Source of the DNA: an uncultured Candidatus Saccharibacteria bacterium
Lineage (GTDB): Bacteria; Patescibacteriota; Minisyncoccia; Phycocordibacterales; SBAW01
Direction of reading: 5' to 3'
NCBI GenBank assembly: GCA_964355655.1
Contig: CAYHDT010000002.1
Span: 15,598-79,597, forward strand
DNA: 64,000 bases
Each line of letters starts with the position of its first letter. The stretch's first letter is position 1. The position numbers and the translations under genes are program-made. The notes under the pieces were generated by a model, which was given only the letters and a program-made list of their open reading frames with translations, did not search any database and was not told where the DNA came from. Below, piece after piece: positions 9,968 through 54,597 of the stretch.

Positions 9968-11326
9968 ATGTTCCTGCATGATACTGCGCACAGTGCAAAT
10001 GCCTGGATAGACGGTTGGCACGTAGAAACCATAGTGGTGGCGGGGACGGCCATGTTTGTTTTTGTACTGACTGCTCTCGTGGTCGACCCCGATGCAGTGC
10101 TGGCTGCCGGGAGCGCGCTTGTGGCTCTCTCGCCGTTGTGGTTGCCGGTAACTCTATTTGTTATATTTTGGAAGATATGGATGCATTACATCCGCTATGC
10201 GTACTGGTTTCGCCAGCCGATGACTCTGTTGCATATCGAGCTGCCGCCCGAAGTAGCCAAATCGCCGCTTGCGATGGAGCTTGTATTGGTAGGCCTGTGG
10301 AATAACGGCAGTGAAACAACATTCATCCAGCGCATATGGAAGGGACAATTCAGAGCCATTTCAACGCTGGAGTTGGTAAGCAATGAAGGCCGTATCGGCT
10401 ACTATATCCACCTGCGCAAAAATTGGAAGGAGTTTATAGAGGCCAGAATATACGGACAATTTCCCGAGGCAAAAATTACCGAGGTGACCCGCGACTATGT
10501 CGATGAGGTGCCGTACAATACGGAAGAGTACGACTTGTGGGGAACTGAGTACGCAAAGGAGAGCAGCCTCGCCGAGGCGCTGCCTATTCGCACGTACATC
10601 GACTACGGCCTCGACAAAAATACCGACACACCCGAGATACACGTCGACCCGATGACTAACATTTTGGAATTTCTTTCCACTATCAAGACAGACGAGTACT
10701 TGTGGATACAAATCGTGATGAAGGCGCGCAAAAAAGACGAGTGGTACGGTTTTTATACCGGCAACCACTGGCTGGACGACGCTAAGACGAATATTAAAAA
10801 AATTACCGAAGCGGCCATCGAGCGCGCGCGGGGACTGACCTCCGACGAGGCCGAGCAAAAAAAAGTAGGTTCTCGCGGCGCGATGCTCCTGACCGGCGGG
10901 GAGAAGCTGATGGTTGAGTCCATAGAGCGCTCGCTCACAAAACAGGTGTTCGACTGCGGCTTCCGCACGGTGTATATAGTTAAAAAAGGAAAATTCGACC
11001 TTAGCCGCGTCAACAACTTGGTGCGCTTGTGGGACCCGTTCCGCGGAGAGAATACCAACAAGCTTAGTGTAGCGAGAGGCAAGTCTATATTCGATTATCC
11101 GTGGCAGGACTGGGACGGCATCCGCGCGACCATGATAAGCAAGAAGATGTTCTTTTGGTACAAGCATCGCGCTTATTTCTACGTGCCGTATGACCAAAAA
11201 GAAGTGTGCATGACCACTGAAGAGCTGGCGAGCATTTGGCACTTCCCGAACTCCGAGGTTAAAACACCGGCGCTGCAGCGCGTACCCAGCCGCCGGGCGG
11301 CGGCTCCGTCGGGACTCCCTATTTAA
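9968..11326 (+). CDS. Hypothetical membrane-anchored protein (452 aa)
   Basis: N-terminal TM helices followed by a large soluble domain. The antisense ORF 10361-11347 is rejected because its Leu/Arg/Val-rich composition is typical of shadow ORFs. Confidence 0.5.
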   Translation: MFLHDTAHSANAWIDGWHVETIVVAGTAMFVFVLTALVVDPDAVLAAGSALVALSPLWLPVTLFVIFWKIWMHYIRYAYWFRQPMTLLHIELPPEVAKSPLAMELVLVGLWNNGSETTFIQRIWKGQFRAISTLELVSNEGRIGYYIHLRKNWKEFIEARIYGQFPEAKITEVTRDYVDEVPYNTEEYDLWGTEYAKESSLAEALPIRTYIDYGLDKNTDTPEIHVDPMTNILEFLSTIKTDEYLWIQIVMKARKKDEWYGFYTGNHWLDDAKTNIKKITEAAIERARGLTSDEAEQKKVGSRGAMLLTGGEKLMVESIERSLTKQVFDCGFRTVYIVKKGKFDLSRVNNLVRLWDPFRGENTNKLSVARGKSIFDYPWQDWDGIRATMISKKMFFWYKHRAYFYVPYDQKEVCMTTEELASIWHFPNSEVKTPALQRVPSRRAAAPSGLPI

Positions 11327-11327
11327 T

Positions 11328-11411
11328 ATGGTCCCGTTAGAGGCCACAAGTTTTTTATGATCAATAAAAATATTACTAGTATAATAGGGCGTCTGAGCCT
11401 CTAACGGGATG
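11328..11411 (+). repeat. Palindromic element copy 1 (ATG-g-TCCCGTTAGAGGC ... GCCTCTAACGGGA-TG), ending at the mltG start codon
   Basis: 13 bp perfect stem at 11332-11344 and 11397-11409, with a 52 nt AT-rich loop containing a TAGTATAAT box. The element is flanked by ATG on both sides. Confidence 0.7.
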
Positions 11412-12413
11412 GCTTGGCATCATACCCACCTTCCAACTTTTCATCGTGTGGCGGACTGGTACCGCAACCGCGACACCTTCGAGAAAGCGGCTATTAATCT
11501 TATCGCATGGGGAGGTATTTTGTGGATTTTATACGCGGCATTTTTGTCGGCTCCGTTCGGTTTTCCCAGCGGGGCGTACATAAACATAGAAGAGGGGATG
11601 GGGCTGCGGACTATTGCCGCGCGGTTCGAAGAGCGAGGCGTTGTCGGCAACGCCAAGCTTTTTGAGCTTATAACCCGCGTGCTCGGAGACGATAGGTATA
11701 TACCTGCGGGGCAATATTTCTTTTCCCGCAAAGACAATATGGTTTGGATAGCGATGCGGATATTGAGCGGCGATTTTGAGACGTCGCCGATACGCATCAC
11801 GATACCGGAAGGCTCTGCCATAAAGGATATTGTCAAAATTATGGTCAGAAAAGTGCCGGGATTCAGCCGCCAACAATTTGTCGAGCGTGCGCGGGAAGGG
11901 TATATGTTCCCCGACACTTATTTTTTCCGGCCCGGGCAATCTACCGAAGCGATATTGAGCGTGTTCGAAAACAATTTCCGCGTCAAATTGCTTAAAGTGC
12001 AAAAAGAAATTACCGCTTCGGACCACTCGCTCGATGAACTGCTGACAATGGCCTCGATTCTTGAAAAAGAGGCGTCTAAAACAAAAGACCGGCAGCTGAT
12101 AGCCGGGGTCCTGTGGCATCGCATCGACATCGGCATGCCGCTGCAAACAGACGCGACGTTCCCGTACTATCTTGGCCGCAATACGTTTGAAGTGACACTT
12201 GAAGACTTGCGTGCTGACCATCCGTACAATACCTATACCAATAAAGGCCTCCCTCCCGGTCCGATAGGGAACCCGGGGCTGGACTCTATACTGGCCGCCG
12301 CCACGCCCACGAAGACAAAATACGTCTTCTTTCTGTCCGACCGACAGGGAGTCTTCCACTACAGCGTGACATACGAAGGCCACCTGGCCAACAAAAGAAA
12401 ATATTTAGACTAA
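11409..12413 (+). CDS. mltG: Endolytic murein transglycosylase MltG (YceG family)
   Basis: N-terminal TM helix. YceG-like motifs LTMASILEKEASK and PYNTYTNKGLPPGPIGNPG. Confidence 0.85.
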   Translation: MAWHHTHLPTFHRVADWYRNRDTFEKAAINLIAWGGILWILYAAFLSAPFGFPSGAYINIEEGMGLRTIAARFEERGVVGNAKLFELITRVLGDDRYIPAGQYFFSRKDNMVWIAMRILSGDFETSPIRITIPEGSAIKDIVKIMVRKVPGFSRQQFVERAREGYMFPDTYFFRPGQSTEAILSVFENNFRVKLLKVQKEITASDHSLDELLTMASILEKEASKTKDRQLIAGVLWHRIDIGMPLQTDATFPYYLGRNTFEVTLEDLRADHPYNTYTNKGLPPGPIGNPGLDSILAAATPTKTKYVFFLSDRQGVFHYSVTYEGHLANKRKYLD

Positions 12414-12418
12414 TCTGT

Positions 12419-12703
12419 ATGCACTTAACTTCTCTGGAAATAATTCTTATCATCTCTACTGTGCTTGAATTTAACCCGCTATTTCAAGCGGTCAAAAGTA
12501 TTCGGACCAAAAAAGTTAATGATCTTTCGGTGTGGACATTCTTGTCTATTTTTGTAATTGGGGGACTATGGCTGTATTACGGCATCACTATTATGAGCGT
12601 TCCTCTTATTATCGGTAACACCATAAAACTTTTTACCGCATTAGTGGTTATTTTCATTTATTTTAAATACAGAAATAAAAATTTGGCTATAACTGTCAAA
12701 TAA
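12419..12703 (+). CDS. SemiSWEET-like PQ-loop small sugar transporter (3 TM, 94 aa)
   Basis: Architecture matches bacterial SemiSWEETs (NPLFQAVKSIRTKKVNDLS ... WLYYGI ... PLIIGNTIKLFTALVVIF). It sits in a locally AT-rich segment of about 40% GC. Confidence 0.55.
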   Translation: MHLTSLEIILIISTVLEFNPLFQAVKSIRTKKVNDLSVWTFLSIFVIGGLWLYYGITIMSVPLIIGNTIKLFTALVVIFIYFKYRNKNLAITVK

Positions 12704-12816
12704 AAAGATAATTTGGTTCCAACATATTCCCATACTGCCAGCTCGACATTTTAAATATTTTGTTGTAGTGTTTACTTTAGATTAAAAACGCTTCTTCGGG
12801 AGAAAAGGGGAGTTTA

Positions 12817-13104
12817 ATGGACGACAAATATTTATATCCTACGCCCGGGGGATTGTGGGCCATCAGACGCTGGGTTGAGGGCAAATGGATAACCCTTGTC
12901 CAAGATTCTTACATGGACGAGCCGGGGGCTATAGAGGCTATTATGCGCGTGCTGCGCATCCCGCACACTCAAGCGAGTCTTGATCGGTTTTTCCCTGTCC
13001 AAGCCGAGGCGGGCCGGTGTCCAACGTTGGAGCTCATGGAGCTCTGTAATGTGCTGGATCCGACCAACCCGCATATCAAGAACAGGAAGGAGTATGGAGT
13101 ATAG
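12817..13104 (+). CDS. Hypothetical protein (95 aa)
   Basis: ORF only. No motif recognised. Confidence 0.35.
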   Translation: MDDKYLYPTPGGLWAIRRWVEGKWITLVQDSYMDEPGAIEAIMRVLRIPHTQASLDRFFPVQAEAGRCPTLELMELCNVLDPTNPHIKNRKEYGV

Positions 13105-13167
13105 CGCACCAGCGGCCGTTAACGGCCGCTTTTTCTTTTGCAGCACACGGTATGGTATAACTTGCCC

Positions 13168-14379
13168 ATGTTTCTGGGGGATAAGAAAATATCACGCAAA
13201 CCTAAAGTGTTTGTAGGTTTAAGCGGCGGGGTGGACTCGGCTGTTTCAGCCGCTTTGCTGCAAAAAGAGGGCTACAATGTGACCGGCGTTTTTATACGCA
13301 TCGCAATCGACGGCTACCCGTGTACCGCCGGAGAAGACAAGCTTGACGCCATGCGTGTCGCGGCGCATTTAAAAATACCTTTTCGTACAATTGATTTGTC
13401 GGAAGAGTACAAAAAGAAAGTTTTTGATATTTCAATAAAAGAATTTGAGAAGGGGAGAACCCCAAACCCCGATGCGTTGTGTAACCGTGAAATAAAATTT
13501 GGCCTCTTCTTCGACTGGTGTATGGAGCAGGGCGCCGCCTTGGTCGCTACGGGGCATTATGCGCAAATTGCTCCAGCAAAATCTGTCCAGAAAAAGGTCC
13601 TCGGGTCTCCTGTCTCGGCCAAGACGGAAGAGGCCGGCAGGCCAGACCATTTTTCTAAACAGATTTTGCTTCTGGCTGGTGCAGATCCCGACAAGGACCA
13701 GTCTTACTTCTTGTGGGCCGTACCCGAAACAAAGCTGCGTAAAACGCTGTTTCCTGTCGGGAATTTAACTAAGCCGGAGGTGCGCAAACTGGCGACAGCG
13801 TTTGGTCTGCCGAATGCCGCTCGGAAAGACAGTCAGGGACTCTGTTTTCTTGGGCCTGTATCGATGGACGATATGCTCCGGCAGGAACTAGCACTTGTCC
13901 CCGGTGATGTGATTGATATGCAAGGCGCCCCCATAGGCCGGCACGAAGGCGCGGCCGCCTATACGCTCGGCCAGCGGCACGGGTTTGAGCTTAATGCTCA
14001 TACTCCCGATATTCGACCTCACTTTGTGGTGGCAAAAAATGTCGCGGCAAACACTATTACCGTGTCTACCGAGCGGTTTCCTCAATCTGCGACAGAAACA
14101 CAAATCGAGTTAAGCGATACTAATTGGATAGGGCCTTACTCCGCTGAAGCTACGGAGGGCAAAAAGCTTGCAGCAAGGTATCGTTATCGGCAAAAGCTTA
14201 TTCCGGCTGAGGTAGATTTTGACAAAAGCATCGTTACACTTTTTGAGCCGCACTTTGTGCCGGAAGGCCAGTCGCTTGTTTTGTACGACGGGCAGCGGTG
14301 TCTCGGCGGCGGTGTTATACTAACTGCCAAGTATGGCGATATTCATCGCGAAAGCGGACGGCACGCAAGAGCCGTATAA
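13168..14379 (+). CDS. mnmA: tRNA-specific 2-thiouridylase MnmA
   Basis: PP-loop VFVGLSGGVDSAVSA, catalytic CNREIKF region, and GLCFLG motif. Start chosen at MFLGDKK. Confidence 0.9.
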   Translation: MFLGDKKISRKPKVFVGLSGGVDSAVSAALLQKEGYNVTGVFIRIAIDGYPCTAGEDKLDAMRVAAHLKIPFRTIDLSEEYKKKVFDISIKEFEKGRTPNPDALCNREIKFGLFFDWCMEQGAALVATGHYAQIAPAKSVQKKVLGSPVSAKTEEAGRPDHFSKQILLLAGADPDKDQSYFLWAVPETKLRKTLFPVGNLTKPEVRKLATAFGLPNAARKDSQGLCFLGPVSMDDMLRQELALVPGDVIDMQGAPIGRHEGAAAYTLGQRHGFELNAHTPDIRPHFVVAKNVAANTITVSTERFPQSATETQIELSDTNWIGPYSAEATEGKKLAARYRYRQKLIPAEVDFDKSIVTLFEPHFVPEGQSLVLYDGQRCLGGGVILTAKYGDIHRESGRHARAV

Positions 14380-15175
14380 TCCGGAAAAACTTGTTTCCTC
14401 ACTCATGCGCGCCGGCGCTGAACAGCAATTGGCCCGCGATATTTCCCGCGCCGTCGAGTCGGAGCTCTACGCGGGCATTACCACTCAGGAGATTTACCGG
14501 CACGCTTTTTCCAAACTGCGCGAGTCCAGGCGGGGAGCGGCCGCCCGTTACAGCCTAAAGCGCGCGATACTTGAATTTGGCCCGTCCGGATTTCCCTTCG
14601 AAGCTTATATATCGGAGCTTTTCCGCGCCGAAGGAGCACAGACGCAAATAGACCAGATAATTAAAGGAGCGTGCGTCGAGCACGAAGTCGACGTAGTTGT
14701 GCATCAAAACGGTGCGATAACCTACGTGGAGGCAAAATTCCACAACGCGGCCGGTTTTAAGACAGACCTGAAAACAGTTCTGTATGTTAAAGCGCGCCTC
14801 GATGATATTGCCGCGGCCCGCAAACAAAGAGGTTTGCACGAGCCCATGCGCGGGTTGGTGGTGACTAACACCAAATTTACGAGTGTTGCCGCACAATACG
14901 CTTCTTGCGCCGGGGTTGAAATTTTGGGATGGGAAGAGCCGGACGGCAAAACTCTCCACGACCGCATAGACGCGGCCGGATTGTACCCCGTAACGGCGCT
15001 CACAACGCTCAATCGGCGCGAAAAAATAGCTCTTCTTAGCCAAAAAATAGTGCTCTGCAATGCGCTGGGCGCAGACACCCGGGCTCTTGCCAGGACCGGT
15101 ATAACGGGACAAAAGGCCGATCATGTGTTGGAAGAGGTGGGAGCCTTGTGCGTACCGGGTAAGGATATAGAATAG
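14333..15175 (+). CDS. ATP-cone domain fused to an Mrr-like (PD-(D/E)XK) restriction endonuclease domain
   Basis: N-terminal ATP-cone (MAIFIAKADGTQEPYNPEKLVSSLMRAG...). Mrr_cat-like core VDVVVHQNGAITYVEAKF. Overlaps the mnmA 3' end by 47 nt. Confidence 0.65.
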   Translation: MAIFIAKADGTQEPYNPEKLVSSLMRAGAEQQLARDISRAVESELYAGITTQEIYRHAFSKLRESRRGAAARYSLKRAILEFGPSGFPFEAYISELFRAEGAQTQIDQIIKGACVEHEVDVVVHQNGAITYVEAKFHNAAGFKTDLKTVLYVKARLDDIAAARKQRGLHEPMRGLVVTNTKFTSVAAQYASCAGVEILGWEEPDGKTLHDRIDAAGLYPVTALTTLNRREKIALLSQKIVLCNALGADTRALARTGITGQKADHVLEEVGALCVPGKDIE

Positions 15176-15187
15176 GGACGGGCCCCG

Positions 15188-15224
15188 CCCGTACCGAACG
15201 GTACGTTCGGTACGGGAATTTTAT
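15188..15224 (+). terminator. Strong intrinsic terminator
   Basis: CCCGTACCGAACG-gta-CGTTCGGTACGGG (13 bp perfect stem) followed by AATTTTAT. Confidence 0.7.
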
Positions 15225-15252
15225 AAAAAACGTTTAAATACAGCACAGCGGT

Positions 15253-15900
15253 ATGCAAGAAAAAAACAGCGGCACAGAGAAACAGGGAGGTTTGTCATGG
15301 TCTACGCCGGCTTCCTCTCCGGCTCAACCGCAAAAACCGGCACAAGCGCAGCAGAAGCCCCCGGCTTTCAGTAAGCCTCCGGCGCCGGCTGCCACGGCCT
15401 CAAGTTCGACAAAATACGCGGGTATGATAGCCGCCGGTATTGTCGCGGGAGTTCTTATCGCATGGGGATGGAGCGCGCTGCGCACTCCCGGCAGCAGCGC
15501 GCAGCAAGCGCAAAATAACGCCGCAACTACCTCTACCGACACCGGATTGGGTATCGGCACAAGCACGGTGCCGGCACTGGGCTCTGATCCGGCGCTCACT
15601 ATTGTGAGCCCGCAGCCTGCGGGGAACTCCGTCGCGGTCGCCAAGGCTATTGTTTCGGGCCCAACATGGGTTGTTATATACGAAAACAAAGACGGCCAGC
15701 CCGGCAATGCTCTTGGGGCGGCGCTCTTTTGGCCGGAAAAACAAAATGGAACCGTTGAACTTTTGCGCTCGACCATGCCGGGCAAATCGTACTTGGCGGT
15801 CAAGCAAACAGACAACGGCGACCGCAAGTTCTCTCTTAAGGACGATCAATTTCTGAGCGAGGGCGGAGCGGTGCAGTGGGTAACGTTCGAGACAAAATAA
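15253..15900 (+). CDS. Membrane-anchored or secreted protein with a low-complexity Pro/Ala/Gln-rich N-terminus
   Basis: PAQPQKPAQAQQKPPAFSKPPAPAA followed by a TM helix and then a soluble domain. Confidence 0.5.
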   Translation: MQEKNSGTEKQGGLSWSTPASSPAQPQKPAQAQQKPPAFSKPPAPAATASSSTKYAGMIAAGIVAGVLIAWGWSALRTPGSSAQQAQNNAATTSTDTGLGIGTSTVPALGSDPALTIVSPQPAGNSVAVAKAIVSGPTWVVIYENKDGQPGNALGAALFWPEKQNGTVELLRSTMPGKSYLAVKQTDNGDRKFSLKDDQFLSEGGAVQWVTFETK

Positions 15901-15921
15901 TCCCAGGGTACAATTACAACC

Positions 15922-16380
15922 ATGGGACTTGAAAACGAGTTTGTGTGGAGGTTGGCGGCAGCGGCTCTACTGGGGGCGCTGCTTGGCCTTGAGCGCTCCT
16001 TGGCGGGCAAGCATGCCGGGATGCGCACGTACGCGCTCGTTTCGATGGGCTCGGCGCTCTTTACCGTCTTGGGAATCGCCGCCAGCTACCAGTTCTCGAT
16101 GTTCCCCGGAGTAAACCCGCTGCAGCTCGCCGGTTTTGTCATCGTCGGCATCGGCTTTATAGGCTCGAGCCTCGGAGGCTTGGGCGGCAGCCATCCCGCG
16201 GAGCTGACTACCGCGTCGGGCGTCTGGGTAGCCGCCGGCATCGGCATTGCAGCCGGTTTCGGGTACGGGTCGGTTGCTTTTGCCGCTACGGTATTTGCGA
16301 TACTTATATTTTCGGTGCTTGCCCGCGTTGAACATAAAATACGAACCAAATTCGGCGAACGCTACGCTCAGCACGAATAG
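15922..16380 (+). CDS. mgtC: MgtC/SapB family membrane protein
   Basis: WRLAAAALLGALLGLERSLAGKHAGMRTYALVSMGSALF is a typical MgtC N-terminus. Confidence 0.8.
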   Translation: MGLENEFVWRLAAAALLGALLGLERSLAGKHAGMRTYALVSMGSALFTVLGIAASYQFSMFPGVNPLQLAGFVIVGIGFIGSSLGGLGGSHPAELTTASGVWVAAGIGIAAGFGYGSVAFAATVFAILIFSVLARVEHKIRTKFGERYAQHE

Positions 16381-16414
16381 GGAAATCGCCCCTCTTACGC
16401 TAAAATAGACCGGC

Positions 16415-16502
16415 ATGAGTCCCGTTAGAAATTGTGGAAGTATTAACTGGCAGGATTCTTTATTAGTATTTGGAAGCAAAGCTTCCTATTTCTAACGGGA
16501 TG
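16415..16502 (+). repeat. Palindromic element copy 2 (ATG-ag-TCCCGTTAGAAAT ... ATTTCTAACGGGA-TG), ending at the start codon of the Cas4-like nuclease gene
   Basis: Arms at 16420-16432 and 16488-16500, with a 55 nt loop. The stem extension covaries relative to copies 1 and 3 (AAT/ATT versus GGC/GCC and GAT/ATC). Confidence 0.7.
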
Positions 16503-17354
16503 AGCCAGTACTACAAGCCGAACCGCCAGCCCGACTACAACTTCGGCGGTCCAAAGTGGCGCCTGTCGCGTTCTAAAATAGACCTCTTTTTAGAATGTCC
16601 GCAATGTTTTTATATCGATAATAAGCTCGGTGTCGCCCGCCCGCCCGGCTATCCGTTTAACCTCAACTCCGCGGTGGACGAATTGTTGAAAAAAGAATTT
16701 GATATCCATCGCGCCAACGGCACGCAGCACCCCTTGGCCAAAAGCTACGGCGTAGAGGCAGTCCCTTTTGACGATCCTAGGATGGACGAGTGGCGCGACG
16801 CTTTGCGGCGCGGGATACAGTGCGTGCACAAAGCGACCGGGCTTACGGTGCGCGGAGGTGTGGACGATGTGTGGGTAGACAAAGACGGCCAACTTATCAT
16901 TGTCGATTATAAAGCGACGAGCAAAAGCGGCAAAATAGAATCTCTTGACGAAGAGTGGCACCGCGGCTACAAGCGCCAGCTTGAAATATATCAATGGCTC
17001 TTTCGCCAGAACGGATTTAAAGTCTCCGACACCGGCTACTGGGTGTACGCCAACGCGAGCAAGGACCGCGCGGCTTTTGACGGCAAATTGGACTTCGAGG
17101 TGACGCTCGTCCCTTACATCGGAAATAGCGACTGGGTCGAGGGGGCGCTGATTAACTTGAAAGCGTGTCTAGACAGCGATAGTATTCCCGAAGCGCTGTC
17201 CGATTGCGACTACTGCCGTTACCGGGGAGCCGCAGGCAAAGCGCTGTTGGCGGCTAAAAGTAAAAATGCCCCGACGCGCGAAGCGGTCAGCGTCCCGGCC
17301 AAAGTGTCGGGGAAAAATAACGACCATGAAAAGAAAACAAATCAGCTTTTCTGA
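16500..17354 (+). CDS. PD-(D/E)XK nuclease, Cas4/RecB-like with putative Fe-S cysteines
   Basis: LIIVDYKATSK (D..YK motif), QLEIYQW (QxxxY), N-terminal CPQC and C-terminal CLDSDSIPEALSDCDYC. Start set at ATG 16500 (MSQYYK); the tracked ORF starts at an upstream TTG inside the repeat. Confidence 0.7.
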   Translation: MSQYYKPNRQPDYNFGGPKWRLSRSKIDLFLECPQCFYIDNKLGVARPPGYPFNLNSAVDELLKKEFDIHRANGTQHPLAKSYGVEAVPFDDPRMDEWRDALRRGIQCVHKATGLTVRGGVDDVWVDKDGQLIIVDYKATSKSGKIESLDEEWHRGYKRQLEIYQWLFRQNGFKVSDTGYWVYANASKDRAAFDGKLDFEVTLVPYIGNSDWVEGALINLKACLDSDSIPEALSDCDYCRYRGAAGKALLAAKSKNAPTREAVSVPAKVSGKNNDHEKKTNQLF

Positions 17355-18163: not shown

Positions 18164-18841
18164 TTGACTATGATAAAAATTGACCCAAGCTGGAAAGAAG
18201 TTCTGCAAGCCGAATTCGGCAAAGATTATTTTGCGGCTCTGACCGCTTTTGTTAAAGATGAGTACAAAAAAGGCGGGGTGTACCCTGCGCCTAAAAATAT
18301 TTTCAGGACTTTTGACCTGACTCCGTTTGATAAAGTAAAAGTCGTCATTCTGGGGCAGGATCCGTACCACGGGAAAGGACAGGCAAACGGCCTGTGCTTT
18401 GCGGTCGGGGAAGGGATGGCGTTACCGCCGTCTTTGCAGAATATATACAAAGAACTCGAAAGCGACCTGCATAATCAAGGACGGTCCTTGATTAAAACAG
18501 GGGATTTGGAACGATGGGCTAAGCAGGGAGTATTGCTGTTAAATGCGACACTGACCGTGCGGGCCGCCAGCCCCGGCTCGCATCAAAAAAAGGGCTGGGA
18601 GGAGTTTACCGACACGGCGATTAAAGCGCTATCGGAAAAACGGGAACATTTGGTATTTATCCTGTGGGGCAATTACGCCAAGCAAAAAGGAGTGCACATT
18701 GATCGCACTAAGCATTTGGTTATAGAGTCGCCGCACCCGTCGCCTTTTTCGGCGCATAGCGGCTTCTTTGGCTCGCGTCCATTCAGCAAGACAAATGAGT
18801 ATTTAACATCCACCGGCCAGCAACCAATCAGCTGGTTATAA
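18164..18841 (+). CDS. ung: Uracil-DNA glycosylase, family 1
   Basis: GQDPYHG, LLLNATLTV and HPSPFSAH motifs. Confidence 0.9.
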   Translation: MTMIKIDPSWKEVLQAEFGKDYFAALTAFVKDEYKKGGVYPAPKNIFRTFDLTPFDKVKVVILGQDPYHGKGQANGLCFAVGEGMALPPSLQNIYKELESDLHNQGRSLIKTGDLERWAKQGVLLLNATLTVRAASPGSHQKKGWEEFTDTAIKALSEKREHLVFILWGNYAKQKGVHIDRTKHLVIESPHPSPFSAHSGFFGSRPFSKTNEYLTSTGQQPISWL

Positions 18842-39861: not shown

Positions 39862-40071
39862 ATGGATAGCCAAGCACCAGAAACTCAAGGCGTCGTTGAA
39901 GAAGCCTTGCCTAATACGTTGTTCAAAGTCTCTTTGGAGAACGGTGAGGTGGTGTTGTGTTATCTCGCGGGCAAAATGCGGCTTCACCGGATTAAAGTGC
40001 TTGTGGGAGACAAGGTCCTGATGAAGCTCGACCCCTATGGGGGGAAGGCCCGCATCACGCGGCGATTGTAG
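39862..40071 (+). CDS. infA: Translation initiation factor IF-1
   Basis: TLPNTLFKVSLENGEVVLCYLAGKMRLHRIKVLVGDKVLMKLDPYGGKARITRR is an S1-like IF-1 sequence. Confidence 0.9.
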   Translation: MDSQAPETQGVVEEALPNTLFKVSLENGEVVLCYLAGKMRLHRIKVLVGDKVLMKLDPYGGKARITRRL

Positions 40072-40074
40072 TAA

Positions 40075-40165
40075 ATGAATCCCGTTAGAGATGACGACGT
40101 TAAAAATATGACCATTAGCAAAATAACTACGGAAATGCTTTGCATTTCCTATCTCTAACGGGATG
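40075..40165 (+). repeat. Palindromic element copy 3 (ATG-aa-TCCCGTTAGAGAT ... ATCTCTAACGGGA-TG) between infA and rpmJ, ending at the rpmJ start codon
   Basis: Arms at 40080-40092 and 40151-40163, with a 58 nt AT-rich loop. Confidence 0.7.
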
Positions 40166-40276
40166 AAAGTAAAAGCTTCGATAAAACCCCGGTGCGCTAA
40201 CTGCAAAATGGTCCGCCGCAAGGGGCGGATTTATGTAGTGTGCATCAACCCGCGCCATAAGCAGCGTCAAGGATAA
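40163..40276 (+). CDS. rpmJ: 50S ribosomal protein L36
   Basis: [37 protein letters not shown] (37 aa, zinc-ribbon Cys/His). Too short for the ORF track. Confidence 0.85.
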
Positions 40277-44221: not shown

Positions 44222-44713
44222 ATGGTGTCTCGTATGGACTCCTCGGATGAAGAATTTGTGCCGGAAGAAGAGGCCGAAACCGGCCCCGCGGCGCTCAAAT
44301 CGATTCGCGAGAAGCTTAAGATAGCAATTGCTGAAAAGCAGGAGTATCTTGAAGGCTGGCAACGGGCGCGGGCCGACCTGATCAACTACAAAAAAGAGAC
44401 TGCAGCAGGACACGGAGAGTCGCGAGGGCGCATTAAAGCGGAGTTTATCGAGGAGCTGCTCCCGGCGCTGGACGTTCTTGAGCTTTCGGTCAAGCACGAC
44501 AAAAATCCGACGCTTACAATGCTCGAAAAGCAGTTTCTGGATTCATTAAAAAAATTAGATATAGAGCGGTTCGGTTCGGTAGGGGACGACTTTGACCCGC
44601 ACAAGCACGAAGCGCTCGCCGAGCGGGGAAAGAAGCACAAAGTTGAATCAGTGGAACGCAGCGGATACCGCGCAGGCGGCAAAATTATAAGACCGGCACA
44701 AGTAATTATATAA
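44222..44713 (+). CDS. grpE: Nucleotide exchange factor GrpE
   Basis: Coiled-coil N-terminus and the GrpE C-terminal beta domain (GDDFDPHKHEALAERGKKHKVESVERSGYRAGGKIIRPAQV). The tracked ORF start at 44009 is a 5' extension through structured noncoding sequence; ATG 44222 is used. Confidence 0.85.
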   Translation: MVSRMDSSDEEFVPEEEAETGPAALKSIREKLKIAIAEKQEYLEGWQRARADLINYKKETAAGHGESRGRIKAEFIEELLPALDVLELSVKHDKNPTLTMLEKQFLDSLKKLDIERFGSVGDDFDPHKHEALAERGKKHKVESVERSGYRAGGKIIRPAQVII

Positions 44714-44745
44714 AATAATCGAGGACCGTCCTTGATTTAAAATAG
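44711..44745 (+). repeat. Palindrome-containing repeat upstream of dnaK (AAATAATCGAGGACCGTCCTTGATT)
   Basis: 17 bp near-perfect palindrome TCGAGGACCGTCCTTGA at 44719-44735. An almost identical copy lies downstream of dnaK. Confidence 0.6.
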
Positions 44746-44751
44746 AAAAGT

Positions 44752-46659
44752 ATGGGAAAAATTCTTGGAATCGATTTAGGCACCACTAACTCCGCCGCGG
44801 CGATAGTACAGGGCGGAGAGCCTAGAGTGCTCGAAAACGCGGAAGGTGCGCGCACCACTCCGTCGGTTGTCGCTACCTCTAAAACCGGCGAGCGTCTGGT
44901 CGGCCTTATTGCGCGCCGCCAAGCGGTCACCAATCCTAAAAACACGGTCTACCAAATTAAGCGCTTTATCGGCCATAGCTTCGACGAAGCAAATGTACAA
45001 AAAGACAAGGCTGTTGTTCCTTTTGAGATGCGCAAATCCGCAAACGGCGGCATCGAGGTCAAAATGGGCGACCTGCCTGCCGGCGGGCAGGGGCATTGGG
45101 TGCGCCCCGAGGAAGTCTCAGCCATGATTTTAGGCAAATTGAAGGCGGATGCTGAAAAGCGCCTGGGCGAGCCGATAACTGAAGCGGTCATAACCGTACC
45201 GGCGTATTTTAACGATGCTCAGCGCGCCGCCACGCGCGACGCGGGCAAGATTGCCGGGCTCGAGGTTAAACGCATCATTAACGAGCCTACCGCCGCGGCG
45301 CTTGCCTATGGCTTTGATAAAAAGAAGGACGAAAAAGTAGTTGTCTTCGACTTTGGAGGAGGTACCTTCGACGTGTCGGTGCTGGAAGTGAGTGCTGATG
45401 TTATCGAGGTCCGCTCCACCGACGGCGACGCGCATCTTGGCGGCAAGGACATCGACCAAAAAATAATAGACTGGCTGGCGGTCGAATTCCAGAAAGAGTC
45501 CGGTATCGACGTGCGCAACGACGCGCTGGCCCGCCAGCGCCTCGACGAGGCGGCGGAAAAGGCAAAAATAGAGCTTTCTACCTCCATGGAAACCGAGGTA
45601 AATATTCCGTTTATTACCTCGGACGCCTCCGGTCCGCGCCATTTGCTCGTAAAGATGAGTCGCTCGAAGCTCGAAGAGCTGACGGCGGAATACATTGACC
45701 GCGCGCTCGCCATTACCAAGCGCGCCATGGAGGCCTCGCCGTTTAAAATAGGCGACATCAACGAAGTCATACTTGTCGGCGGCCAAACCCGCATGCCGGC
45801 TCTGCAGGCAGCGGTTGAAAAATATTTCGGCAAAAAACCGAACATGTCGGTAAATCCCGACGAGGTAGTGGCTATCGGCGCCGCTATCCAGGGCGGTATA
45901 CTCGGCGGCGAGGTGCGCGATGTGCTTTTGCTCGACGTCATTCCGCTTTCTTTAGGCATCGAGACTATGGGCGGCGTGGCAACCAAATTGATAGACCGCA
46001 ACACAACTATCCCCACCGCAAAATCGCAGACATTCTCTACCGCGGCCGACAACCAAACAAGCGTGGAGATACACATAACACAGGGCGAGCGCGCCATGGC
46101 CAGCGACAACAAAAGTCTTGGCAAGTTTGTACTCGACGGCATTCCCCCCGCGCCCCGCGGACTCCCACAGGTTGAGGTAACCTTTGATGTCGACGCCAAC
46201 GGCATACTCAGCGTCAAGGCAAAAGACAAAGCCACCGGCAAAGAGCAGGCTATCCGTATCGAGGCAAGCTCAGGGCTAGCCGACGCCGACATTGAGCGCA
46301 TGCGCAAAGAGGCCGAGGCAAACGCCGAAACCGACAAGCAGAAAGTTGAGCTGGTAGAAGCGCGCAACATGGCCGACCAAGCGGTGTACGGCGCGCGTAA
46401 AGCTCTTGGCGACAACAAAGATAAAATCCCCATGGAGCTCGCGACCGCAATCAACGAAAAAGTTTCCGCCCTAGAATCCATTAAGGGGGGAGATGACTTT
46501 GTAAAAATAAAATCCGCAACCGAAGAACTGTCGAAAGAATTGTCCAAAGTCTACGAAGCGGTGCAAAAAGCCGGAGGTACTCCTCCGCCTCCGCCGGCCA
46601 GCGGAGAAACCCCTCCGGGCACTCAACAAGCGCCAACCGATACTCCGGAGCAGAAATAA
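44752..46659 (+). CDS. dnaK: Chaperone DnaK (Hsp70)
   Basis: [17 protein letters not shown] and [11 protein letters not shown] signatures, with a full-length SBD. Confidence 0.97.
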
Positions 46660-46687
46660 TCAAGGACCGTCCTTGATTATTTTAGGT
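46655..46687 (+). repeat. Second copy of the palindromic repeat (AAATAATCAAGGACCGTCCTTGATTATTTT), immediately after the dnaK stop
   Basis: Perfect palindrome TCAAGGACCGTCCTTGA at 46660-46676 followed by a T-rich tract. It may also act as a terminator. Confidence 0.6.
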
Positions 46688-51455: not shown

Positions 51456-52742
51456 ATGGAGCGCACTCTTATTGCCGATTTGCAAAACAAAAAAGGGGAG
51501 GCGGTAACCATCCAGGGCTGGGTTAGCGTGCGGCGCGACCAGGGCAAGATGGTATTTTTTGACTTCCGCGACCGCTCGGGCGTGGTACAGGGCGTTACCT
51601 TACCCGCTTCGCCGGCGATAGAAACCGCTAAAGAGGTGCGCAATGAGTACGTGGTTTCGGTCGAAGGCAAGGTCAACGAGCGCCCGGAAAAAAATCGCAA
51701 GGAGGGTGTGCAAAACGGCGATATCGAGTTGGAAGTACTGGGTATAGAAATAATCTCCAAGGCAGAAATTCCGTTTGAGCTGGGCACTGAAGTCAATCTC
51801 GATACGTATCTCGACCACATGCCCTTTACCCTACGGGCAGAAAAGGCGAAGCAGATTTTTAAAGTACAGCAGGCGATAATCGAAGGATTTCGAGAGGGAA
51901 TGAAAGCCCAGGACTTTACCGAATTTCAGGCGCCCGCGCTGGTGGGCGGCGACGCCGAGGGCGGAGCCGCGGCTTTTAAGGTTGACTATTACTACGAGCA
52001 AAAAGCCTACCTAGCAACCAGCCCGCAACTGTACAAACAAATAATGGTGGGTGTTTTTGAAAGGGCTTTTACCACGCCTAAGATATTCCGTGGAGAAAAG
52101 CACGCTACCACGCGCCACCTCAGCGAGTATACATCGCTCGACTTTGAAATGGGTTTTATTAAAGACCATACCGACGTAATGGCCGCGCTGGCGAAGACCA
52201 TGCGAATAATCGTCAAGAAAACGGGTATTGACGTTGCCATACCGGAACAGATTCCTGTATTAAAATTGCGCGAAGTGCAAAAGATACTTGGTGTGGGAGA
52301 GGAGCCCGACCTCGAGCCCGAGCATGAGCGCGCCATTTGCGAGTGGGCGCTGCGTGAGCACAACTCAGATTTTGTGTTTGTGACGCACTACCCCGTCAGC
52401 AAGCGGCCATTCTACACTTACGAAGACGAGGCCGACCCGGGTTTTACCAAAAGTTTTGACCTCCTCTTCCGCGGGCTAGAGATTACGACCGGCGGCCAAC
52501 GCATCCACAACTACGACGCGCTGGTGGCCGCTGCAAAGGCAAAAGGGCTCGACCCAAGCAAGTTTTCTTATTATCTGGAGACGTTTAAAGTCGGCATGCC
52601 GCCGCACGGCGGCTCGGCCACGGGGCTCGAGCGCCTGACCGCCCGCTTGCTTAACCTCCCCAATGTCAAAGAAGCAACTCTCTTCCCCCGCGACCTCAAC
52701 CGCATCGACATCCTCCTCTCGACAGATAAAAAAGAAGAATAA
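51456..52742 (+). CDS. aspS: Aspartyl-tRNA synthetase, archaeal/eukaryal type (probably non-discriminating)
   Basis: N-terminal OB fold. Class II motifs include FRGLEITTGGQRIHN, VGMPPHGGSATGLERL and TLFPRD, which match archaeal-type AspRS rather than AsnRS. Confidence 0.8.
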   Translation: MERTLIADLQNKKGEAVTIQGWVSVRRDQGKMVFFDFRDRSGVVQGVTLPASPAIETAKEVRNEYVVSVEGKVNERPEKNRKEGVQNGDIELEVLGIEIISKAEIPFELGTEVNLDTYLDHMPFTLRAEKAKQIFKVQQAIIEGFREGMKAQDFTEFQAPALVGGDAEGGAAAFKVDYYYEQKAYLATSPQLYKQIMVGVFERAFTTPKIFRGEKHATTRHLSEYTSLDFEMGFIKDHTDVMAALAKTMRIIVKKTGIDVAIPEQIPVLKLREVQKILGVGEEPDLEPEHERAICEWALREHNSDFVFVTHYPVSKRPFYTYEDEADPGFTKSFDLLFRGLEITTGGQRIHNYDALVAAAKAKGLDPSKFSYYLETFKVGMPPHGGSATGLERLTARLLNLPNVKEATLFPRDLNRIDILLSTDKKEE

Positions 52743-54480: not shown

Positions 54481-54597
54481 AAACTGGAGCGCCTGACCGC
54501 CCGCCTGCTTAACCTCCCCAATGTCAAAGAAGCAACTCTCTTCCCCCGCGACCTAAATAGAATCGACACCCTGTTGAGTACCGATAAAGGAGAATAG
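54481..54597 (+). pseudogene. Duplicated 3'-terminal fragment of aspS (encodes ...LERLTARLLNLPNVKEATLFPRDLNRIDTLLSTDKGE*)
   Basis: About 72 nt are near-identical (2 mismatches) to 52625-52697. The tail encodes the same peptide with mostly synonymous, AT-shifted codons. No upstream catalytic domain. Confidence 0.7.

Follow-up and report, generated by a model that had tools for sequence, protein, structure and literature searches.

Correia/NEMIS elements of Neisseria, ERIC/IRU elements of enterobacteria, and RUP/BOX elements of the pneumococcus each occur within one genus or family, and the copies of each share their interiors; Correia elements duplicate TA. Rickettsia palindromic elements (RPEs) are found within coding regions and appear in the translated protein. 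Elements of the IS200/IS605 and REP/RAYT types make no target duplication, have asymmetric ends, and insert 3′ of a fixed tetra- or pentanucleotide. Coupling of translation in operons involves ATGA and TAAnnATG junctions, the melting, by upstream translation, of structure that covers the next start, as in MS2 coat-replicase, and scanning by 70S ribosomes after termination. Ribosome bypassing in T4 gene 60 and the mitochondrial “byp” inserts proceeds between take-off and landing codons.

We analyzed a palindromic element that precedes a nuclease gene in a 64,000-nucleotide stretch of DNA (here called the window) from an uncultured Saccharibacteria bacterium. The nuclease protein also occurs on ENA contigs of sample ERZ1292616, which places the window in a Patescibacteria (CPR) genome from Hainich groundwater. 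Like the Correia/NEMIS, ERIC/IRU, and RUP/BOX elements, it is shorter than 200 bp and non-coding, with terminal inverted repeats and short target duplications; it occurs as many dispersed copies with presence/absence polymorphism, has the features of an mRNA hairpin, and sometimes carries promoter or processing signals. Unlike those elements, it has 10-nt ends that are identical across phyla, with unrelated interiors. To our knowledge, no MITE of the Correia/ERIC/RUP type occupies and rebuilds start codons, and a search of the literature found no report of one on start codons that it rebuilds. The element resembles RPEs in being a mobile palindrome that persists in essential genes while the reading frame is kept usable, and one mini copy (locus L123) is in frame. 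The copy in front of the nuclease gene (copy 2) differs from RPEs in preceding the protein, out of frame, and in being closed by its own TAA. A Rickettsia-type in-frame element was ruled out for copy 2, since its two ATGs are 85 nt apart, and hence out of frame, and the TAA closes the frame.

Like coupled genes in operons, the element has frames that either stop 4 nt short of the next ATG or overlap it as ATGA, its downstream start is structured and has no Shine-Dalgarno (SD) sequence, and ribosomes apparently enter its upstream frames at a leaderless AUG or from the preceding gene's stop. Here, however, the module is delivered by a transposable element instead of having evolved between genes, and the upstream frame has no conserved peptide. 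The byp inserts of Magnusiomyces mitochondria and T4 gene 60 are similar in concept: an insert in expressed sequence, with matching codons and a hairpin, is tolerated by translation. In contrast to those systems, we propose translation, termination, and restart at an initiation codon; no sign of hopping was found. Integron attC sites are likewise imperfect palindromes of 60 to 120 bp at gene boundaries with GTTAGA/TCTAAC-like cores. An attC site was rejected because the core order is reversed (GTTAGA...TCTAAC on both strands versus RYYYAAC...GTTRRRY), duplications flank the element, and there is no integrase or cassette array, the neighbors being housekeeping genes. An IS200/IS605-derived or REP/RAYT element is ruled out by the variable 3- to 4-bp duplications and the symmetric 13-bp ends. 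Unlike all of the families compared, this element sits on and rebuilds start codons or -35 boxes and has a built-in stop/start relay, an unusual and possibly adaptive design.

Three copies in the window

The features of the three copies in the window and of the region around copy 2 are as follows.

11332..11409, forward strand: copy 1, 78 bp; target-site duplication TGG; precedes a YceG/MltG-like gene at 11409-12413
16401..16406, forward strand: -10-like hexamer TAAAAT, 8 nt upstream of the ATG at 16415
16415..16495, forward strand: upstream open reading frame (uORF) of copy 2, 26 codons plus TAA; its start is the gene's original ATG, duplicated through insertion
16416..16419, no strand: left target-site duplication of copy 2, TGAG; empty orthologous sites read ...ATGAGCCAG / ...GTGAGCCAG
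16420..16500, forward strand: copy 2, 81 bp; AT-rich interior without relation to the interiors of other copies
16420..16432, no strand: left terminal inverted repeat of copy 2, TCCCGTTAGAAAT
16472..16486, forward strand: inner hairpin of copy 2, GGAAGC-AAA-GCTTCC, adjoining the right repeat
16488..16500, no strand: right terminal inverted repeat of copy 2, ATTTCTAACGGGA, including the uORF stop TAA at 16493-16495
16500..17354, forward strand: nuclease gene, PD-(D/E)XK (Cas4/RecB-like), 284 aa; Pfam PF12705, E = 4.5e-13
16501..16504, no strand: right target-site duplication of copy 2, TGAG, as read from the sequence
40080..40163, forward strand: copy 3, 84 bp; target-site duplication TGAA; between infA and rpmJ (40163-40276)

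The three copies have only their ends in common, TCCCGTTAGAnnn and nnnTCTAACGGGA; the AT-rich interiors cannot be aligned. All have perfect 13-bp terminal inverted repeats, with three variable end positions that are complementary within each copy, and all are flanked by direct repeats, each after an A (TGG, TGAG, and TGAA in copies 1, 2, and 3, respectively). The inner hairpin of copy 2 recurs in shape, not in sequence, in copy 3 and in the copies of loci L050, L074, L078, L086, and L107. The last base of the right repeat of copy 2 is the A of the nuclease ATG (16500). This ATG is the true start of the nuclease, because MSQYYKPNR is the N terminus of all close homologues.

A first-pass annotation, made from the sequence without database searches, had described a 26-codon frame running from the ATG at 16415 to the TAA in the 3′ arm, 4 nt (CGGG) before the ATG at 16500, and the same layout with a 27-codon frame in copy 3. 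We confirmed both. The copy 2 frame encodes MSPVRNCGSINWQDSLLVFGSKASYF, and the copy 3 frame spans 40075-40158, with the junction TAAcgggATG at 40156-40165; the same junction is present in copies 1 and 2. The annotation was also correct that copy 1 is out of frame; its frame differs because the flanking repeat is 3 nt instead of 4 nt. A first frame in copy 1 (uORF1, 11328-11360, 10 codons) stops at the TGA at 11358, which overlaps an internal ATG (ATGA, 11357) that opens a second (uORF2, 11357-11404, 15 codons), and this second frame ends at the arm TAA at 11402, 4 nt before the ATG at 11409. The stop codon of the preceding gene (TAA, 11324-11326) lies 1 nt upstream of the first ATG of copy 1. 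At copy 3, the infA stop (TAG, 40069-40071) is followed by a TAA and then by the upstream ATG, which begins 3 nt after the infA stop. All three window copies can be read, from their sequences, as relays of coupled frames. What the annotation missed is the mobile nature of the element: the flanking repeats are a target-site duplication, the upstream ATG is the original start, and the terminal repeat supplies both the TAA and the last ATG's A.

The predicted hairpin of copy 2 has a free energy of -35.4 kcal/mol (z = -4.5), and its stem pairs the A of the gene's ATG. None of the window copies has an SD sequence, and in all three (3/3) the ATG lies inside a stem of -30 to -35 kcal/mol.

A dispersed family with empty and occupied sites

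We scanned 185,579 species genomes with the pattern TCCCGTTAGA-N40-70-TCTAACGGGA. Arms had to match exactly over 10 nt, terminal T and A included, with 40 to 70 nt between them, so that the sample is biased to intact copies of medium size. At least 119 loci were found in species genomes, versus ~17 expected by chance by our estimate. Most of the listed loci are in Patescibacteria (Saccharibacteria, Nomura-, Kerfeld-, Levy-, Kaiser-, and Yanofskybacteria, and others), and some are in metagenome-assembled genomes labeled Omnitrophota, Planctomycetota, WOR-3, or Nitrospirae. Copies measure 61 to 90 bp in the scan and ~117 to 120 bp in L160 and L186; they contain only frames of 10 to 40 codons, with unconserved peptides. 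The target-site duplication is 4 bp long in 87, 3 bp in 12, and 2 bp or less in 32 of the 131 copies listed. Its sequence varies (TGAA, TTGA, TGGA, TGAG, TAAA, and others), with a site consensus of approximately A-TNNA-T, the hyphens marking the boundaries of the 4-mer. Of 90 copies, 52 have a perfect outer ungapped stem of 13 bp, and in most of the others the stem is 12 to 17 bp long. The interiors of ATG-duplicating copies are unrelated (67 copies form 64 clusters), and the copies can therefore be counted as nearly independent. Besides the three copies in the 64-kb window, there are three each within 8 kb in L014 and in L112.

Orthologous sites differ in whether they hold the element. Among syntenic MgtC-nuclease loci, L125 and L126 (89% amino acid identity) are empty and read ggcatgcATGAGCCAG, and L128 (80%) is empty and reads ggcgaGTGAGCCAG. 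L127 (78%) is occupied by an 80-nt copy with a different interior, and L123 and L124 (81%) carry a 29-nt mini copy that consists of the two arms only and is in frame. The mini copy of L123 lies at 1501-1536, and the protein there (P0002) is annotated as MSPVRSGASNG-MSQYYK, with an N-terminal extension. Further homologous nuclease loci in the metagenome set were empty in 68 of 74 cases (plus two more); in this set, L160 and L186 are occupied by longer copies, and L129 and L162 have decayed copies. These independent occupied orthologues behave like the window copies: in L160, one uORF spans the 117-nt element and ends at an ATGA overlap, and in L186, two ORFs form a relay whose last stop is the arm TAA. 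At the infA-rpmJ junction, L101 has a copy, and L049 and L071 have none. As a separate observation, extensions of the form MxPVR- may be a general annotation artifact in Patescibacteria, as with the mini copy of L123 and L124.

Because the copies are short, dispersed, and polymorphic in their insertion, with perfect terminal repeats and target duplications that vary, we conclude that the palindrome is very probably a non-autonomous, MITE-like mobile element. Every testable property of a MITE was found, except a known parent transposase. No pairs of arms 0.3 to 4 kb apart and enclosing a transposase were found in ~1 Mb of loci; a candidate autonomous copy in L086 proved to be a chance match inside murD/murC, and lone arms likewise yielded nothing beyond chance matches in these genes. 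Viral contigs gave only 6 matches, none of which pointed to a transposase. The covariance models of Rfam 15 matched no element copy in positions 11000-17000, even at E ≤ 10. Literature searches with the arm sequences, for MITEs in CPR/Patescibacteria, and for MITEs in connection with start codons or translational coupling found no relevant description, and the family is apparently undescribed. A model with a 6-bp duplication (ends CCCG...CGGG) was rejected, as it demands that every 4-mer be preceded by A and followed by T, and both bases are present in only 33 of 99 copies. An enzyme that mobilizes the family would have to recognize the same 10-bp end in several phyla.

Stem pairs show no excess of G.U over A.C; with only 4 non-Watson-Crick pairs among 291, they are too few to separate an RNA-level from a DNA-level stem. 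In the orthologous copies L115 (782-846) and L117 (7081-7145), two inner hairpins are kept by compensatory changes (GACATC/GATGTC versus GGTATC/GATACC), which suggests that the inner structure is constrained after insertion.

Start codons and -35 boxes as insertion sites

In 90 of the 129 distinct copies listed, an ATG made up of the terminal A and the next two bases, TG, begins an ORF of 30 codons or more; the ATG is duplicated on both sides of the element in 68 copies listed. We reconstructed empty sites by removing the elements and then scored ATGAA sites by position; gene calls in these statistics follow simple ORF rules. Occupancy of ATGAA sites was as follows.

ORF start: 24 of 232 sites occupied, 10.3%
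Intergenic: 6 of 334 sites occupied, 1.8%
Inside gene: 12 of 2155 sites occupied, 0.56%

By these occupancies, the start-codon bias is more than avoidance of coding sequence. This six-fold preference for start codons over intergenic sites of the same sequence may be due to active targeting of initiation regions, and not to the survival of harmless insertions alone.

Another ~10 copies (about 10%) lie in a -35 box, in the arrangement gATTGA-element-TTGACA followed by 17 nt and a TATAAT-like hexamer. These insertions rebuild the promoter box as the start-codon copies rebuild the ATG. They are found in L015, L020, L023, L047, L071, L084, and L089, of which L023 (1795-1864) is the clearest; the copy in L071 (7162-7229) precedes infA. 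A further group of ~13 gene-start copies has neither a duplication nor an upstream ATG and shares the left flank AC(C/T)TG directly before TCCCG (L013, L017, L019, L021, L028, L032, L036, L040, L064, L085, L118, and L213). The frame from the YTG of this flank closes after 3 codons, at a TAG in the left arm.

A -10-like box 4 to 10 nt upstream is present at 19 of 67 occupied starts versus 103 of 828 background starts (P = 0.001), an enrichment that points to leaderless genes. The sequence cgcTAAAATAG before the upstream ATG of copy 2 is conserved in the orthologues L127 and L128. From the TAAAAT hexamer 8 nt upstream and the conservation of motif and spacing in orthologues, the nuclease mRNA at copy 2 is probably leaderless or nearly so, with the upstream AUG at its 5′ end. 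Scanning for consensus promoters gave no canonical -35/-10 pair at either copy 1 or copy 2. Among empty, element-free nuclease orthologues (loci L130-L208, 20 nt upstream of the ATG), 40 of 64 have a TAnAnT hexamer (mostly TATACT, also TATAAT) 4 to 10 nt before the ATG, mostly at 6 to 7 nt. Those 40 have no SD sequence, and a conserved repair nuclease thus appears, as far as motif and spacing indicate, to be expressed from a leaderless mRNA across Patescibacteria.

We tentatively suggest a broader picture, for which the odds are somewhat below even: a tiny transposon family, spread across several phyla, that is built to be translationally transparent. The repeat would encode the A of the start codon and a stop, so that insertion at an ATGAA-type site automatically creates a relay of old ATG, short ORF, TAA, 4 nt, and rebuilt ATG, and the family would colonize the start codons of essential genes, especially leaderless or coupled ones, together with -35 boxes in gene-dense Patescibacteria. 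If true, this would be a new lifestyle for a selfish element in streamlined genomes with almost no spare DNA, in which the element takes up the start codon and brings along the signals for continued translation of the gene. In Patescibacteria, short upstream ORFs numbering in the hundreds would then be by-products of the element and not peptides. Gene callers add false N-terminal extensions at such sites, as in the P0002 protein described above. Copies would also flag the true start codons and -35 boxes of uncultivable organisms, and they would offer a natural, compact test case for termination-reinitiation and leaderless translation.

Reading frames through the element and expression of the downstream gene

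We favor, with a probability of roughly 0.6, the explanation that a mobile element inserted on the start codon and that the gene is reached by a relay in which ribosomes translate through the element, terminate, and reinitiate. A staggered cut in the start codon of the nuclease gene would have led to duplication of TGAG on insertion, and the terminal A of the element, with the duplicated TG, would restore an ATG in its native downstream context. The original ATG would stay upstream with its native signals, namely the -10 box at copy 2 and the stop codon of the preceding gene at copies 1 and 3. In the mRNA, the arms would pair in a hairpin of about -35 kcal/mol that sequesters the A of the gene's ATG, with no Shine-Dalgarno sequence at hand. 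Ribosomes starting at the upstream ATG would translate across the element and melt the hairpin, terminate at the TAA of the right repeat 4 nt upstream of the gene's ATG, and reinitiate there. Insertion would be nearly harmless while the interior remains stop-free, and in the third frame it would yield an in-frame N-terminal extension. For the window copies, we put translation of the uORF, with reinitiation as its role, at somewhat better than an even bet.

The repeat sequence fixes the geometry in each frame. In frame 1, the right repeat provides a TAA at -7; in frame 2, the junction GGA-TGA usually gives an ATGA overlap (+1); and frame 3 is in frame into the gene. An element length that is a multiple of 3, combined with a 4-bp duplication, yields the TAA frame. 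Such lengths occur in 40 of 90 start-codon copies versus 6 of 39 others (P = 0.0014). The check proposed in the first-pass annotation, a look at further copies, favors the ATG-to-TAA arrangement seen in copies 2 and 3. The TAA frame is used by 34 of the 67 distinct ATG-duplicating copies listed (22 expected), and 23 of those 34 are open up to the arm TAA, versus 10 when the elements are reverse-complemented; in 26 of the 67, the first frame meets a stop within the element, and only some of these are rescued by a nearby restart codon. The remaining first frames include 7 that end at the ATGA overlap and 9 that continue in frame into the gene. When one restart within the element is permitted, the endings at -7 rise to 26 of the 67. 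When restart at an ATG beside the internal stop is permitted, 45 of 67 copies reach the gene's ATG, versus 26.3 expected (z = 4.9). Only 9 to 12 of the 67 copies are in frame and open into the gene.

Raw read-through is similar in gene-start and non-gene copies (61% versus 63%), a comparison that misleads, since the non-gene copies are GC-rich (55% versus 36%). For this reason, we compared each copy with shuffles of its own interior instead, with the following results.

Gene-start copies, sense: 44 of 90 stop-free, 26.7 expected, z = 4.3
Gene-start copies, antisense: 37 of 90 stop-free, 35.2 expected, z = 0.4
Non-gene copies, + strand: 24 of 39 stop-free, 22.6 expected, z = 0.5
Non-gene copies, - strand: 25 of 39 stop-free, 21.4 expected, z = 1.3

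Of the three sense frames of the gene-start copies, which are independent and come from genomes other than that of the window, the uORF frame is open in 44 and the others are open in 17 and 31. The uORF frame therefore looks, on these counts, to be under selection in start-codon copies. The first-pass annotation had allowed that the layout “may be chance”; with an excess of stop-free sense frames and none in antisense or non-gene copies, chance is not borne out. Its proposal of termination-reinitiation fares less evenly. The geometry exists, and stops are depleted only on the sense strand of start-codon copies, but the internal stops just described, the copies with their own SD sequence, and an occupied locus (L127) that has no upstream ATG do not fit a single obligatory route.

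These exceptions bear on the most serious competing explanation, in which the element is the same mobile DNA, the uORF is a mere by-product, and the gene initiates independently at the ATG at 16500, by breathing of the hairpin, by RNA processing, or, in other copies, from an SD sequence in the element. Since the repeat always supplies both the TAA and the A of the ATG, the termination-reinitiation geometry arises automatically. An internal SD of the GGAGG or AAGGAG type, 5 to 22 nt before the ATG, is present in 15 of 90 copies in the sense orientation versus 1 of 90 in antisense; in L127, the upstream ATG is gone and a GGAGG lies 16 nt ahead of the ATG; an SD has also arisen in the decayed L129 copy; and the 26 internally stopped frames add to this side. 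We nevertheless think independent initiation with an idle uORF unlikely, at about one chance in four. Against a mere by-product, stop depletion is confined to the sense uORF frame of start-codon copies, TAA-frame length classes are enriched only at gene starts, and the window copies lack an SD, with the ATG buried in a strong stem. Copies with an internal SD show no significant tendency to dispense with the uORF. The uORF is not obligatory, given the internal SDs and L127 without an upstream ATG, and reinitiation is one of several ways in which copies keep the gene expressed.

The hairpin could instead be mainly a regulatory RNA or DNA device recruited by the host, with the uORF modulating it: an RNase III site, an operator, a thermosensor, or an attenuator formed by the inner hairpin and the T-rich arm. 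The structure is strong and statistically unusual, copy 2 has a terminator-like inner hairpin (GGAAGCAAAGCTTCC) followed by TATTTCT, and the inner hairpins of L115 and L117 change in a compensatory way. Elements also have polarity relative to the gene, as an internal YGGGA motif (a partial or complete second right arm) occurs in 30 copies versus 2 in the opposite sense; from its sequence, this motif could form an alternative structure with the 5′ arm, freeing the start. Against a regulatory role, the downstream genes have no common theme (besides the nuclease, they include MltG, L36, and hundreds more), conservation of the arms extends to their sequence and is not limited to pairing, with no G.U excess on the sense strand, and the target duplications and empty sites indicate insertion instead of a conserved leader, with no match to an Rfam family. 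We regard such a device as distinctly improbable. Still harder to credit is a scheme in which ribosomes hop over the hairpin from the first AUGAG to the identical second AUGAG, or in which the element is removed from the RNA, so that reinitiation is unnecessary. The identical 5-nt repeats flanking a stable hairpin do recall T4 gene 60 and the byp inserts; yet target duplication accounts for the repeats, hopping would not select the open interior frame that is observed, and known cases need peptidyl-tRNA and nascent-peptide signals and cover ~50 nt. The translate, terminate, and reinitiate relay is the reading we retain for copy 2.

The window holds other repeats. A 96-nt palindrome at 13575-13670 lies in frame inside the mnmA ORF (13138-14379; tRNA 2-thiouridylase), with 21-nt arms that are 90% complementary and 54 nt apart. 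It coincides with ~29 extra residues (query positions 137-165) that have no counterpart in solved MnmA structures and looks like a palindromic insertion of the in-frame Rickettsia type; its arms (..TGTCCAGAAAAA / TTTTTCTAAACAG..) bear only a faint resemblance to the start-codon element. A second small repeat family is a near-identical, perfect palindrome of 21 to 25 nt, AATCAAGGAC(C/G)GTCCTTGATT, at 18469-18493, 44713-44737, and 46654-46682. Two of these copies are in intergenic gaps after genes and are terminator-like, and one is inside a uracil-DNA glycosylase ORF. Finally, a 111-nt direct repeat occurs at 52626-52736 and 54484-54594, with 86% identity between copies 1858 nt apart.
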